Source: a virus
Taxonomy: Duplodnaviria > Heunggongvirae > Uroviricota > Caudoviricetes
DNA length: 3,817 nt
Virus record (IMG/VR): IMGVR_UViG_2671180921_000020
Span: 1-3,817 of that record
Direction: 5' to 3' (one strand)
Part shown: piece by piece, positions 1-3,817 of the stretch
How positions within the stretch are numbered: the first letter of the stretch is position 1
Layout: each line of letters opens with the position of its first letter
The notes under the pieces: generated by a model
The model's database searches: none
The model's input: only the letters and a program-made list of their open reading frames with translations
Told to the model about the DNA's origin: nothing
Program-made: the position numbers and the translations under genes

Positions 1-267
1 GTGAGTGAGTCAAAATGCCAAATTAATGGCAACAAGATAGAACCGTGCGCGGCGCTGGCACAATCTCTGGAGCAGGATGCTGAATACACGACGCGAAAAG
101 GCCTGCTGATATACAAAATCTATAACCATGAATTAATTCATTCACAAGATCTGATCATGCTTCGGTCTGGTGAATTTTCTAAATCACCGATTCGAGTTTC
201 ATTTTGTCCGTTCTGTGGTAAGAGTCTGAAAACATGGGAAAAGGAGACAACCAGTGGGCAAGATTGA
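1..267 (+). CDS. Hypothetical phage protein, 5'-truncated C-terminal fragment, with a possible Cys-pair (zinc-ribbon-like) motif
   Basis: Open frame runs from base 1 to TGA at 265-267 with no in-frame ATG until about codon 53, so the true start is probably upstream of the window. Contains C-x9-C (KCQINGNKIEPC) and CPFC pairs. The next ORF begins 14 nt before its stop, preceded by an AAGGAG RBS. Confidence 0.55.
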   Translation: MSESKCQINGNKIEPCAALAQSLEQDAEYTTRKGLLIYKIYNHELIHSQDLIMLRSGEFSKSPIRVSFCPFCGKSLKTWEKETTSGQD

Positions 268-670
268 CTATCAGGCACTGCGTGGGGCGGCAGAGCAGGC
301 AATGCATGACGACTGGGGATTTGACGCGGACCTTTTCCATGAGCTGGTAACACCATCGATTGTGCTGGAACTGCTGGATGAACGGGAAAGAAACCAGCAA
401 TACATCAAACGCCGCGACCAGGAGAACGAGGAAATTGCGCTAACGGTAGGGAAGTTGCGCGTTGAGCTTGAGGCAGAAAAACAGCGTGCAAAGGATCTGT
501 TTATGGAAAATGCTCGGCTTAAGTCAGGTATAGCCGGTCTGATACACCTCGGTATTCGATATGCAGATGTTGAGGTCATGAGAATTGCTGGAGATGCCCA
601 GCTTTCTACCCCATGCACTGACAGCATCATAAACAGCATTGCAACAGGCATTCGCATCAAAGGAGAGTGA
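254..670 (+). CDS. Hypothetical phage early protein with coiled-coil segment; possibly Ead/Ea22-like
   Basis: GTG start at 254 lies 7 nt after AAGGAG (241-246). 138-aa ORF with a heptad-like charged segment (ELEAEKQRAKDLFMENARLK). The N-terminus (IDYQALRGAAEQA...W) resembles, from memory, the N-termini of Ead/Ea22-like proteins. Its stop at 668-670 is 1 nt before the next start. Confidence 0.6.
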   Translation: MGKIDYQALRGAAEQAMHDDWGFDADLFHELVTPSIVLELLDERERNQQYIKRRDQENEEIALTVGKLRVELEAEKQRAKDLFMENARLKSGIAGLIHLGIRYADVEVMRIAGDAQLSTPCTDSIINSIATGIRIKGE

Positions 671-671
671 T

Positions 672-1040
672 ATGAGCGCTATAACCAAAGAACGTATCAA
701 ATTATTCATTAAAAATCCGCTTGATAACGGACTTACTCGTGGCGAACAAATGGAACTGGCACGAATTGCACTGGCATCGCTGGAAGCAAAACCAATAGGT
801 GCTTTCCACATTGCAGAACAGCAGGTCGATGGCACAAGTGACTACATCAAGGATGGGGAGTGGCCTATTGATAATGGGACAATTGAAGTATACGCCGCCC
901 CTCCAGCGCCAGTAGTGCCGGAAGAAAAACCAATGCCGAACCCTCTTAGCATGTACGCGGTTGATGCTGTTGCCGCTATTGCAGAGGTGAGAGGATGGAA
1001 CGCCTGCCGTGCAGCCATGCTTAAGGGGGATAAATCATGA
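672..1040 (+). CDS. Hypothetical phage protein (122 aa), Pro-rich linker; possibly related to the Ea22-like family
   Basis: ATG at 672 is preceded by AGGAG (661-665). I chose it over the track's upstream start at 639, which has no RBS and overlaps the preceding gene. Ends with the ATGA overlap at 1037-1040, coupling it to the next gene. Confidence 0.6.
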   Translation: MSAITKERIKLFIKNPLDNGLTRGEQMELARIALASLEAKPIGAFHIAEQQVDGTSDYIKDGEWPIDNGTIEVYAAPPAPVVPEEKPMPNPLSMYAVDAVAAIAEVRGWNACRAAMLKGDKS

Positions 1041-1399
1041 TTAATCGAACCAAACTGGAGCACATCCTCGAGTATGCCAGGCAGCAGAGGCGCTTTGGCC
1101 AGCTTTGTAAAATTCTGCCAGGAGATATGGTTGAAATCGTGGAGATTGCCATGCGTAAGACTGGCAACTCTCCGGTAACTCCGGATGGTTGGATAAGCTG
1201 TAGTGAGCGAATGCCAAACGATAAACAGTATGTTTGGTGTTGGGGGAAGTCTTACGGCTGGACTGAGTGCGATACCTTCGAAGGGTATTACGATTGGTCG
1301 AGAAACAAATGGTGGGCAATTACTGACGATGGGGAAGAACCGGCATCGAAAGTAACCCACTGGATGACGCTATCGGAGCCACCGCAGGAGGTGAAGTGA
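1037..1399 (+). CDS. DUF551-like phage protein
   Basis: 120-aa ORF whose ATG at 1037 overlaps the upstream TGA (ATGA). Trp-rich C-terminal region (GWISCSERMP...YVWCWG...WW...VTHWMTLSEPP) matches the motif I recall for DUF551 phage proteins. AGGAGG (1386-1391) is embedded near its 3' end for the next gene. Confidence 0.6.
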   Translation: MINRTKLEHILEYARQQRRFGQLCKILPGDMVEIVEIAMRKTGNSPVTPDGWISCSERMPNDKQYVWCWGKSYGWTECDTFEGYYDWSRNKWWAITDDGEEPASKVTHWMTLSEPPQEVK

Positions 1400-1683
1400 T
1401 GGACTCCTTCGCGAAATATACGATTATTGACTGGGTAGCCTTCCTTCAGGTTTTGCTCATCTGGTTTTATATGGCTTACAGGAGTGGACAGTGGATTGTC
1501 AGTGTAGCCTGTAGCAAGGGATGGCGTTGGTGGAACCGAAAGAATAAAAAAGCGCTGGCCTTGGATTCGTTTTACGAAGCATTCAATCTTAACAGCCTTC
1601 AGCCTGGTTCTGTCGTTGTAGTCACCACTCAAAGCGGCATGACGATACAAATTCACAAGCCAAAGGAGGAAGGTCGTGGCTAA
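1399..1683 (+). CDS. Small single-pass membrane protein (94 aa), hypothetical
   Basis: ATG at 1399 overlaps the upstream stop (TGATG), 7 nt after AGGAGG. Residues ~8-28 (YTIIDWVAFLQVLLIWFYMAY) form an ~20-residue hydrophobic stretch followed by a basic cluster (RWWNRKNKK), consistent with an N-out/C-in membrane helix. The track start at GTG 1396 is also possible. Confidence 0.55.
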   Translation: MDSFAKYTIIDWVAFLQVLLIWFYMAYRSGQWIVSVACSKGWRWWNRKNKKALALDSFYEAFNLNSLQPGSVVVVTTQSGMTIQIHKPKEEGRG

Positions 1684-1957
1684 CCTGCAACTTGCCGTTA
1701 AAGGTGAATACTTCGATGCCATGATTCGAGGAGAGAAAACGGAAGAGTATCGCCTGTGTAATGACTACTGGAATAAGCGAATTATGTTCCGGGAGTATGA
1801 CCGCCTGATTATCACAAAGGGATATCCGAAGCGCGACGACTCCAGTCGCAGAATTGATGTTCCGTATGGAGGATATGAAGTGAAAACAATCACACCCCCC
1901 CACTTCGGTGATAAGCCGGTAAAGGTATACGCGATAAAGGTGAATATCAATTGCTAA
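1676..1957 (+). CDS. ASCH/PUA-like domain protein (putative), 93 aa
   Basis: GTG at 1676 lies 6 nt after AGGAGG (1664-1669) and overlaps the upstream stop by 8 nt. The N-terminal segment LAVKGEYFDAMIRGEKTEEYR resembles the ASCH-domain beta-strand/GxK motif as I recall it. Ends TAA at 1955-1957, last gene of the coupled chain. Confidence 0.5.
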   Translation: MANLQLAVKGEYFDAMIRGEKTEEYRLCNDYWNKRIMFREYDRLIITKGYPKRDDSSRRIDVPYGGYEVKTITPPHFGDKPVKVYAIKVNINC

Positions 1958-1981
1958 ATTAGTGGCATAGCATAAAGATGC

Positions 1982-2006
1982 TTGCATTAATGAAGTGTGT
2001 ATAATA
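1982..2006 (+). promoter_or_regulatory. Candidate sigma70-type promoter for the AT-rich-island ORF
   Basis: Perfect TATAAT hexamer at 2000-2005, immediately preceded by TGTG. TTGCAT at 1982-1987 is -35-like but only 12 nt upstream, which is a suboptimal spacer. Lies in AT-rich intergenic DNA about 65 nt upstream of the ORF start. Confidence 0.35.
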
Positions 2007-2071
2007 ACACCTAATCAATAGTAAACTACTGAAATAGCAAAAAAAAATGCATATTAAAGAGGATTCGAAAA

Positions 2072-2263
2072 TTGAAAATGTTCATGCAAATAGACAGACG
2101 CATAGATATTAATGGCAATTCATACTTAGTTAGATGCGAAGAGAGGCCTAACGGTGAGTGGCGTGTATATGATATTGACCGTAAGGTCAATATCAGCACC
2201 ATGAACAAAGACACTGCCTTTGATGAATGGAAAGCTGAAGCTAAAAAACAACATAATTCGTAG
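2072..2263 (+). CDS. Small hypothetical protein (61-63 aa) in an AT-rich island; moron-like
   Basis: ORF ending TAG at 2261-2263. Candidate starts are TTG 2072, ATG 2078 and ATG 2084, downstream of AAGAGGA (2057-2063). AT-rich codon usage contrasts with flanking genes. Flanked by a promoter-like element upstream and a hairpin plus T-tract downstream. Confidence 0.5.
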   Translation: MKMFMQIDRRIDINGNSYLVRCEERPNGEWRVYDIDRKVNISTMNKDTAFDEWKAEAKKQHNS

Positions 2264-2305
2264 AATTACAAAAACCCTAACCAATTGATGGATTTCTTTT
2301 ATCTG

Positions 2306-2330
2306 AACTCGCTACGGCGAGTTTTGTTTT
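2306..2330 (+). terminator. Rho-independent terminator candidate
   Basis: Perfect 7-bp stem AACTCGC (2306-2312) / GCGAGTT (2317-2323) with a 4-nt loop TACG, followed by TTGTTTT (2324-2330). Confidence 0.5.
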
Positions 2331-2343
2331 ATGGAGATGATAA

Positions 2344-2511
2344 ATGCACTTCCGAGTTACAGGTGAATGGAATGGAGAACCATTCAACAGAGTTATCGAA
2401 GCAGAGAACATCAATGACTGCTATGACCACTGGATGATATGGGCGCAGATAGCACATGCAGACATAACCAATATTCGAATTGAAGAACTGAAAGAACACC
2501 AAGCCGCCTGA
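2344..2511 (+). CDS. Small hypothetical protein (55 aa), not in the supplied ORF track
   Basis: ATG at 2344 lies 7 nt after GGAG (2333-2336) and directly follows an in-frame TAA. Translation: MHFRVTGEWNGEPFNRVIEAENINDCYDHWMIWAQIAHADITNIRIEELKEHQAA. Stop TGA at 2509-2511 falls inside the loop of the downstream terminator hairpin. Occupies the position immediately upstream of xis. Confidence 0.5.
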   Translation: MHFRVTGEWNGEPFNRVIEAENINDCYDHWMIWAQIAHADITNIRIEELKEHQAA

Positions 2512-2526
2512 TGGCGGCTTTTTCTT
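2501..2526 (+). terminator. Rho-independent terminator immediately upstream of xis/pI
   Basis: 8-bp GC-rich stem AAGCCGCC (2501-2508) / GGCGGCTT (2513-2520) with loop TGAT, followed by a T-rich tract TTTTTCTT (2519-2526). Confidence 0.65.
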
Positions 2527-2565
2527 GCGTGTAATTGCGGAGACTTTGCGATGTACTTGACACTT
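2525..2565 (+). promoter_or_regulatory. pI-type CII-dependent promoter with CII recognition repeats TTGC-N6-TTGC
   Basis: TTGC at 2525-2528 and 2535-2538 separated by 6 nt (GTGTAA) is the canonical lambda CII site architecture. The surrounding sequence matches lambda pI as I recall it. A weak -10 is expected around 2551-2557, so the transcript would start inside xis. Confidence 0.7.
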
Positions 2566-2769
2566 CAGGAGTGGAACGCACGCCAGCGACGCCCAAGAAG
2601 CCTTGAAACAGTTCGTCGATGGGTGCGCGAATGCAGGATATTCCCTCCTCCGGTTAAGGATGGAAGAGAGTATCTGTTCCACGAATCAGCGGTAAAGGTT
2701 GACTTAAATCGACCAGTAACAGGTAGCCTTTTGAAGAGGATCAGAAATGGGAAGAAGGCGAAGTCATGA
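2551..2769 (+). CDS. xis: Excisionase Xis (lambda-type, 72 aa)
   Basis: Protein MYLTLQEWNARQRRPRSLETVRRWVRECRIFPPPVKDGREYLFHESAVKVDLNRPVTGSLLKRIRNGKKAKS matches lambda Xis as I recall it. GGAG RBS sits 8 nt upstream, and the 3' end overlaps the int start by 23 nt as in lambda. Confidence 0.9.
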   Translation: MYLTLQEWNARQRRPRSLETVRRWVRECRIFPPPVKDGREYLFHESAVKVDLNRPVTGSLLKRIRNGKKAKS

Positions 2770-3817
2770 GCGCCGGGATTTACCCCCTAACCTTTATATA
2801 AGAAACAATGGATATTACTGCTACAGGGACCCAAGGACGGGTAAAGAGTTTGGTTTAGGCCGAGACAGGAGGATAGCAATCACTGAAGCAATACAGGCCA
2901 ATATTGAGTTATTTTCAGGACACAAACACAAGCCTCTGACAGCGAGAATCAACAGTGATAATTCTGTTACGTTACATTCATGGCTTGATCGCTACGAAAA
3001 AATCCTCGCCAGCAGAGGAATCAAGCAGAAGACACTCATAAATTACATGAGCAAAATTAAAGCAATAAGGAGGGGGCTGCCTGATGCTCCACTTGAAGAC
3101 ATCACCACAAAAGAAATTGCGGCAATGCTCAATGGATACATAGACGAGGGCAAGGCGGCGTCAGCCAAGTTAATCAGATCAACACTGAGCGATGCATTCC
3201 GAGAGGCAATAGCTGAAGGCCATATAACAACAAACCCGGTCGCTGCCACTCGCGCAGCAAAATCAGAGGTAAGGAGATCAAGACTTACGGCTGACGAATA
3301 CCTGAAAATTTATCAAGCAGCAGAATCATCACCATGTTGGCTCAGACTTGCAATGGAACTGGCTGTTGTTACCGGGCAGCGAGTTGGTAATTTATGCGAA
3401 ATGAAGTGGTCTGATATCGTAGATGGATATCTTTATGTCGAACAAAGCAAAACAGGCGTAAAAATTGCCATCCCTACAACATTGCATGTTGATGCTCTCG
3501 GGATATCAATGAAGGAAACACTTGATAAATGCAAAGAGATTCTTGGTGGAGAAACCATAATTGCATCTACTCGTCGTGAACCGCTTTCATCCGGCACAGT
3601 ATCAAGGTATTTTATGCGCGCACGAAAAGCATCAGGTCTTTCCTTCGAAGGGGATCCGCCTACCTTTCACGAGTTGCGCAGTTTGTCTGCAAGACTCTAT
3701 GAGAAGCAGATAAGCGATAAGTTTGCTCAACATCTTCTCGGGCATAAGTCGGACACCATGGCATCACAGTATCGTGATGACAGAGGCAGGGAGTGGGACA
3801 AAATTGAAATCAAATAA
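2747..3817 (+). CDS. int: Site-specific tyrosine recombinase, lambda integrase Int (356 aa)
   Basis: Full-length ORF starting MGRRRSHERRDLPPNLYIRNNGYYCYRDPRTGKEFGLGRDRR (lambda Int N-terminal arm-binding domain) and ending ...SDTMASQYRDDRGREWDKIEIK. Catalytic residues are at lambda positions (R212 codon 3380-3382, HELR at H308/R311, Tyr342 codon 3770-3772). TAA stop at the last bases of the window. Confidence 0.93.
   Translation: MGRRRSHERRDLPPNLYIRNNGYYCYRDPRTGKEFGLGRDRRIAITEAIQANIELFSGHKHKPLTARINSDNSVTLHSWLDRYEKILASRGIKQKTLINYMSKIKAIRRGLPDAPLEDITTKEIAAMLNGYIDEGKAASAKLIRSTLSDAFREAIAEGHITTNPVAATRAAKSEVRRSRLTADEYLKIYQAAESSPCWLRLAMELAVVTGQRVGNLCEMKWSDIVDGYLYVEQSKTGVKIAIPTTLHVDALGISMKETLDKCKEILGGETIIASTRREPLSSGTVSRYFMRARKASGLSFEGDPPTFHELRSLSARLYEKQISDKFAQHLLGHKSDTMASQYRDDRGREWDKIEIK

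Follow-up and report, generated by a model that had tools for sequence, protein, structure and literature searches.

Organization of the orf55 locus

The window, that is, the whole 3,817-nucleotide stretch analyzed here (positions 1 to 3,817 of IMG/VR record IMGVR_UViG_2671180921_000020), corresponds, on the + strand, to the left-arm end of a lambdoid prophage. A 55-codon reading frame, orf55, lies directly upstream of xis and int in this window, among the following genes and elements.

1037–1399: DUF551 protein of 120 aa (E = 3.7e-15), a small early gene
1396–1683: DUF4752 protein of 95 aa (E = 7.3e-36), a small early gene
1676–1957: ORF of 93 aa, PHROG 625
2072–2263: ORF of 63 aa, PHROG 16329, at the place of lambda's ea8.5
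2305–2332, + strand: predicted intrinsic terminator, hairpin GAACTCGC-TACG-GCGAGTTT with a T-rich tail, directly 5' of the orf55 ribosome-binding site (terminator scan)
2329–2682, − strand: antisense ORF of 117 aa (ORF list)
2333–2336, + strand: Shine-Dalgarno sequence GGAG, 7 bases 5' of the orf55 ATG (read from the sequence)
2341–2343, + strand: in-frame TAA abutting the orf55 ATG on its 5' side (read from the sequence)
2344–2511, + strand: orf55 coding sequence, ATG start, 55 aa plus TGA (ORF list)
2501–2527, + strand: predicted intrinsic terminator, 8-bp stem AAGCCGCC/GGCGGCTT, loop TGAT and a T-rich tail (terminator scan)
2525–2538, + strand: TTGC-N6-TTGC, CII-binding site and −35 region of the pI promoter (read from the sequence)
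2551–2769, + strand: xis, excisionase of 72 aa (Pfam Exc, PF07825, E = 3.9e-41; excisionase in matching records)
2747–3817, + strand: int, lambda-type tyrosine integrase of 356 aa, overlapping the end of xis (integrase in matching records)

Translation of positions 2344–2511 gives the protein MHFRVTGEWNGEPFNRVIEAENINDCYDHWMIWAQIAHADITNIRIEELKEHQAA. Its start is unambiguous, since the in-frame TAA abuts the ATG, and the GGAG stands at a suitable spacing; an earlier note on this DNA, made from the letters alone, had pointed out both features correctly. It had also placed the stop codon within the loop of a terminator hairpin, and the TGA (2509–2511) indeed falls in the TGAT loop at 2509–2512. 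A length of 55 codons is not unusual by itself, because the ORF list of the window contains 45 ORFs of at least 30 aa; it is the conservation pattern that raises orf55 above chance. Across homologous loci, the GGAG and a similar spacing to the ATG are kept even where the DNA upstream is unrelated, and record OL657226 of phage 434 carries an annotated ribosome-binding site at the place equivalent to the GGAG of the window.

Among the genes further upstream, the start and stop codons of the DUF551 and DUF4752 genes overlap (GTGATG). The product of the 93-aa ORF scored below threshold against the ASCH domain (Pfam E = 0.019, 16.1 bits versus a cutoff of 21.2), and the 63-aa ORF gave no match in Pfam, NCBIfam or PADLOC.

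The reading frame corresponds to lambda orf55

A megablast search of window positions 1960–2560 against phage genomes aligned positions 2290–2560 with positions 29069–29339 of the lambda record J02459 at 96.3% DNA identity, and with phage 434, phage 2B8, several Stx1a-converting phages and many further phage records at 97–99% identity. The lambda counterpart of the reading frame lies at 29118–29285 on the complementary strand. At the protein level, 54 of 55 residues are the same as in lambda Orf55, the sole change being V41 in lambda to I41 in the window, and the PHROG 676 profile matched the protein over its full length (residues 1–55 of 55, E = 1.7e-39). The ribosome-binding site, the flanking terminator hairpins and the place directly upstream of xis are likewise the same in lambda. 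These results overturn the statement of the earlier note that the sequence was not recognized as lambda's.

The position of the reading frame had also been described as that where lambda carries ea8.5. Because the gene order in lambda is ea8.5, orf55, xis, the reading frame occupies the place of orf55 and not that of ea8.5. Ea8.5 is a different gene at a different place, upstream of orf55 in lambda; what the two share is that both are small, non-essential exo-xis genes transcribed from pL. Alignment of the window to lambda gave no match to ea8.5 DNA anywhere in the window, because homology to lambda starts only at about position 2290. The upstream neighbors therefore differ from those of lambda: a 63-aa ORF within an AT-rich island replaces ea8.5, and lambda's ea8.5 position is filled in the window by the ORFs at 2072–2263 and 1676–1957. 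The island itself (1958–2290) has a GC content of 0.33–0.37, compared with about 0.47 elsewhere in the window, and, given where lambda homology begins, it looks like a moron-like replacement cassette ending at the t-L4 hairpin. The reading frame of the window is the last exo-xis ORF, directly upstream of xis, between hairpins at the t-L4 and t'I positions; phage 434 differs from this arrangement in having an extra ORF114 between ORF55 and xis.

The gene had been taken to be unannotated, and existing records show otherwise. Record M60848 of phage 434 annotates ORF55 (AAA67903.1) here with terminator t-L4 on its 5' side, and places ORF114 and then terminator t'-I between ORF55 and xis. The modern 434 record OL657226 has a hypothetical protein at the place of orf55, with a terminator, a CII site and the pI promoter just downstream, and other phage records likewise list a hypothetical protein. 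The old lambda record J02459 carries no annotated coding feature over the orf55 stretch. In a genome-wide lambda study the gene is named lambdap35, and orf55 was skipped in the lambda CRISPRi essentiality map. It is counted among the exo-xis ORFs (PMC3824215), and a review states that the exo-xis ORFs were confirmed by lambda ribosome profiling (Liu et al. 2013), with orf55 not specifically named there.

In bacterial genomes, the protein of the window is identical to RefSeq WP_000545728.1, which PGAP annotated in an O157:H7 prophage integrated beside ybhC. RefSeq E. coli genomes label the product a hypothetical protein, and the exact protein of the window occurs under this label on at least 1000 contigs. 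The orf55 DNA was found in 2690 of 5426 complete E. coli genomes, 2183 of which hold at least 80% of the query. We put at about 85% the probability that the reading frame is the orthologue of lambda orf55 (lambdap35) and a real coding gene, the last of the exo-xis block in the leftward early operon.

orf55 evolves as a protein-coding gene

Pairwise comparison with lambda and the homologues gave dN/dS values of 0.03–0.15 for orf55. Between the window and lambda, six changes are synonymous and a single one, the conservative V41I, is non-synonymous. Against four Klebsiella or metagenomic homologues (73–75% protein identity), dN was 0.18–0.20 and dS exceeded 1.3, at or near saturation, with an omega of 0.11–0.15 where computable. 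In 80 IMG/VR viral contigs, 34 orf55 DNA haplotypes encode only 5 proteins, and the 18 polymorphic sites are distributed as 15, 3 and 0 over the third, first and second codon positions, respectively (binomial p = 1.9e-5). Full-length homologues measure 51–57 aa, and the frame, the length and the ribosome-binding site are retained down to 36–54% protein identity. Conservation across relatives and dN/dS analysis were among the checks that the earlier note had proposed, and their outcome upholds its view that this is a real small gene. These comparisons indicate that positions 2344–2511 constitute a protein-coding gene under strong purifying selection.

An alternative is that the reading frame is not a gene and that its conservation reflects non-coding DNA functions, namely the two terminators and the pI/CII element, or an opposite-strand gene. 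Regulatory elements are closely packed in this region, the 117-aa antisense ORF is longer than orf55, and many lambdoid phages share the DNA at more than 95% identity, so that conservation alone proves little. The excess of third-position polymorphism in the + frame (15 of 18 sites), the saturated dS with a dN of about 0.2 against the Klebsiella homologues, the preservation of length and frame down to 36% identity and the confidently predicted structure of the product all argue against this alternative, which we consider extremely improbable. The antisense ORF is ruled out because third positions of the + frame are its first codon positions; it and a purely non-coding explanation were both rejected on the codon-position pattern.

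Predicted terminators and the pI element around orf55

Both ends of orf55 are marked by predicted intrinsic terminators. The upstream hairpin (2305–2324), a second hairpin that lies 5' of the ribosome-binding site and went unmentioned in the earlier note, folds at −11.9 kcal/mol (z = −4.2), aligns to the 'terminator t-L4' of M60848 and corresponds to the predicted terminator t4-lambda (PMC4195576). Most E. coli contexts retain a t-L4-equivalent hairpin. In the minimum-energy fold of positions 2290–2345 (−16.4 kcal/mol, z = −4.4), AUUUCU (2292–2297) pairs with GGAGAU (2333–2338), enclosing the t-L4 hairpin and sequestering the Shine-Dalgarno sequence of orf55; this pairing is of doubtful significance because lambda has AUUUAU, which weakens it.

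The downstream hairpin (2501–2520) contains 6 GC pairs in its 8-bp stem, a 4-nt loop and the tail TTTCTTG, folds at −15.4 kcal/mol (z = −3.1; 0 of 200 shuffles fold as well) and is nearly identical in sequence to the predicted terminator t5-lambda (PMC4195576). With a GC-rich hairpin followed by a U-tract, the element at 2501–2527 has the form of an intrinsic terminator and is predicted to be one. It sits at the place of the 434 t'I, just upstream of pI and xis, a label taken from the annotation of M60848 and OL657226; the 434 t'I follows ORF114, and its stem sequence differs from that of the window hairpin. Immediately 3' of the terminator and 13 bases before the xis ATG comes the TTGC-N6-TTGC element. 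Its spacing to the xis start equals that of the features labelled 'CII binding site / pI promoter' in OL657226, and alignment demonstrated that lambda, 434 and the window do not differ over this stretch. Scanning the window with Rfam gave a single chance match, asX2, which was rejected (20.5 bits versus a gathering score of 70).

Leftward terminators are passed only by N-modified RNA polymerase from pL. With a predicted intrinsic terminator on either side and the CII-dependent pI downstream, orf55 would depend for its expression on the N-antiterminated pL transcript alone. It would then be produced early after infection or induction, along with xis, and transcription from pI during the establishment of lysogeny would not include it.

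In all E. coli contexts, the 5' arm of the downstream stem is formed by the two Ala codons (GCC GCC) that end the reading frame, and the loop contains the stop codon. The Klebsiella homologues (L106–L109) show this layout with other stem sequences, and it is also seen in two distant homologues, one after cI (L113) and one after N (L115). This arrangement would fit a leader-peptide-like role in which the reading frame acts mainly in cis, with ribosomes that finish in the terminator loop blocking the hairpin and thereby tuning read-through into xis and int. Such a role is very unlikely. Purifying selection strongly conserves the amino-acid sequence, a constraint not required of a reading frame that only carries ribosomes; four distant homologues (L111, L116, L117 and L118) have no terminator at the stop codon; transcripts that reach the end of orf55 come from pL and are already N-antiterminated, as is established for lambda; and in compact phage operons a terminator is often found right at a stop codon. 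Since the protein is constrained and the pL transcripts are antiterminated, coupling between translation and termination would be a minor possibility.

The Orf55 family and its genomic contexts

A profile search of 1.84 billion representative proteins yielded 53 matches, mostly fragments or fusions of the close E. coli group, and a word-indexed protein search yielded 96 clusters, nearly all from Escherichia and some from Klebsiella. Judged from these searches, the Orf55 family appears to be small and restricted to enterobacterial lambdoid phages. Residues W9, N10, F14, E19, E21, D22, D25, W33 and A39 are nearly invariant across the wider family, and all members are acidic, with a pI of 4.2–5.4.

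The Klebsiella homologues stand directly 5' of a different xis (90 aa, Exc family) and a 361-aa int. Distant homologues occupy several other places: two genes 5' of an excisionase-like gene (DUF4224 or DUF1233) and int; immediately after N; close behind cI, where the leftward operon begins; and after O- and P-like replication genes, in a nin-like position. Because distant homologues occupy such other places in early operons, Orf55 needs no functional tie to xis and int, and an obligatory functional link to these genes was rejected on the homologues found after N, after cI or in the nin-like position. What the homologues appear to have in common is the lambdoid early operon, not adjacency to xis.

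A recurring junction, consisting of a terminator T-run followed by ATTGGAGACAA(N)ATG, was observed in L001 (about 536–565), in L109 (about 2970–3000) and at several IMG/VR loci. It lies 3' of orf55 where ORF114-like genes come next, and 5' of orf55 in Klebsiella prophages. This junction may be a conserved linker for the mosaic exchange of small early-gene cassettes.

A host-range scan of the genome_contigs collection was uninformative and was set aside: its matches were mostly near-identical lambda DNA on low-coverage contigs of unrelated taxa, for which laboratory contamination is likely. Near-identical lambda DNA, including contigs of about 48.4–48.5 kb, was seen in assemblies of Shewanella, Kitasatospora, Oceanobacillus, Bradyrhizobium, Leeuwenhoekiella and others (L004–L025), and coverage is usually low where the contig title states it. 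The lambda DNA in these contigs is almost certainly control or ladder contamination and not real prophages.

Truncated, shifted and fused copies

Many prophages carry 5'-truncated or frameshifted copies of orf55, indicating that the gene is often dispensable. Truncation is rare in viral contigs: of 120 pattern-bearing loci inspected, 115 had the upstream part intact. The truncated copies that could be placed (L119–L121) lie in apparent defective prophages of bacterial genomes.

The truncated copies share a common breakpoint at 2394/2395, corresponding to codons 17–18 of orf55. In two truncated loci with unrelated upstream DNA, homology begins at TATCGAAGCAGAG; the upstream partner is a truncated ssb in L121 and a 60-aa ORF in L119. 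In at least 10 protein clusters, the Orf55 match starts at I18 or E19 after differing N-terminal sequences. This breakpoint may represent a recombination hot spot or a widespread defective-prophage remnant beside a LysR/GntP locus. A further fusion, the 112-aa protein P0100, joins the first 64 residues of the 93-aa ORF protein to Orf55 residues 9–55; because it fuses both, some prophages would have deleted everything between the 1676–1957 ORF and orf55.

A short tandem GGAAT/GAATG repeat lies inside orf55 at 2365–2376 (GAATGGAATGGA) and appears to be slippage-prone. Among the variants at the repeat are an in-frame duplication of 5 aa (P0007, L162) and indels that shift the frame (L158, L222); P0058, P0059 and P0076 are examples of frame-shifted proteins.

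Predicted structure of Orf55

The orf55 product is a 6.6-kDa acidic protein with a pI of 4.9 and a net charge of about −6. AlphaFold2, run with an 18-sequence alignment, returned a pLDDT of 90.1, with strands at residues 2–9, 12–19 and 41–49 and a helix at 23–37. Orf55 is thus confidently predicted to be a compact beta-beta-alpha-beta domain; structure prediction was among the checks that the earlier note had recommended. The same fold had been obtained in a published model of Orf55, where the protein was modelled as a possible RNA polymerase modulator (PMC8614690), and is reproduced here.

Domain searches of the 55-aa protein gave no match in Pfam or NCBIfam, and PADLOC gave no defense family at E up to 1. 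In Foldseek searches, no match reached E = 0.001 in PDB or BFVD. The best PDB match was T7 Gp2 on the E. coli holoenzyme (E = 0.047, TM 0.59–0.62), which is below significance; it was followed by eL20 and then by the epsilon subunit YkzG, and PurS also resembles the fold, none of them significantly. At the sequence level, hhalign of the Orf55 family profile against T7 Gp2 (NC_001604) gave a probability of 1.5%, BLASTP of Orf55 against Gp2 gave no alignment, and PDB profile searches at E up to 10 recovered no Gp2, epsilon or p56 chain. A match to copper nitrite reductase through an HFxVTGEWN motif in the PDB profile searches (E of about 0.4–1.5) was rejected as noise. The predicted fold of Orf55 is a common small alpha/beta unit shared by several phage inhibitor proteins.

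T7 Gp2 (PDB 2WNM, 2LMC, 4LK0, 4LLG) is, like Orf55, a small acidic phage early protein, and its beta-beta-alpha-beta topology is also the one predicted for Orf55; the two differ in that no sequence or structure score between them is significant. The weak hhalign alignment keeps the register of the structural alignment and sets Gp2 R56 and R58 opposite Orf55 N43 and R45, a correspondence also given in PMC8614690. The arginine pair on strand 3 through which Gp2 binds the beta-prime jaw is therefore N43 and R45 in Orf55: one of the two critical arginines is matched, and that residue, R45, is not conserved in the family: distant homologues have V, E, H, N or D there. The resemblance to Gp2 is a lead, not membership.

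Epsilon (YkzG/RpoY; PDB 4NJC, 6WVK) shows no sequence similarity to Orf55 and belongs to a different setting, as a cellular RNA polymerase subunit of Firmicutes. The likeness between the two lies in the Foldseek ranking described above. E. coli is not known to have an epsilon-like subunit.

Candidate functions of Orf55

A host-takeover or anti-defense role, as suggested in the earlier note, is plausible, but the searches made here yielded nothing that points specifically to it. With low confidence, we infer that Orf55 would be a non-essential accessory protein that acts as a stoichiometric binder of a host macromolecule. Replacement of the 2.2-kb orf55–orf60a segment by a lacZ cassette, or its deletion, still allowed phage to be recovered and plaques to be formed (PMC12318184).

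RNA polymerase would be the leading candidate target, because of the Gp2/epsilon-like fold. In its strict form, this candidate makes Orf55 a Gp2-type inhibitor or modulator that wedges in where the beta-prime jaw meets sigma-70 region 1.1, an arrangement put forward in a modelling study (PMC8614690). The fold is generic, with no Foldseek match at E = 0.001 in PDB or BFVD, no sequence homology to Gp2 is detectable, the equivalent of R56 is N43 and R45 is not conserved. The biology of the two phages differs as well, since the phage of Orf55, unlike that of Gp2, is temperate and reliant on host RNA polymerase. Lambda relies on the host sigma-70 RNA polymerase throughout its cycle, and a strong Gp2-type inhibitor would therefore harm lambda itself. 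We regard a Gp2-type mode of action as unlikely.

The second candidate target would be the machinery through which host replication initiation is blocked in a pL-dependent manner, and this block would be the leading candidate phenotype. A published study implicates the orf73-ea22-ea8.5-orf55 segment in the inhibition of host replication initiation (PMC9239242).

It is likewise unlikely that Orf55 is an anti-defense or DNA-mimic-type inhibitor, a small acidic protein that would neutralize a host nuclease, glycosylase or immune system. No significant structure or sequence match to any known anti-defense protein was found, and the conserved neighbors of orf55 are xis, int or recombination genes, not known anti-defense loci.

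The most inclusive proposal would join several of these elements: the Orf55 family would comprise temperate-phage Gp2/epsilon-like binders of host RNA polymerase or the replication-initiation machinery, serving as the effector of the pL-dependent replication-initiation block and of cell-cycle synchronization, with the stop codon in the terminator loop providing translation-dependent gating of xis/int read-through. As a whole, this proposal is speculative and quite unlikely to hold.

Significance

orf55 is already a known gene: catalogues of lambda and phage 434 genes have listed it for decades, RefSeq annotates it and a structural model of its product has been published. It belongs to the best-studied phage, occurs in roughly half of the complete E. 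coli genomes and is under clear purifying selection. The analysis narrows the question of what it does to a small enterobacterial lambdoid family whose members are all acidic, always lie in early operons and are not tied to xis and int. The published Gp2-like model relies on an arginine that the Orf55 family does not conserve. These narrowed points bear on experiments with the exo-xis region, including work on Shiga-toxin prophages.
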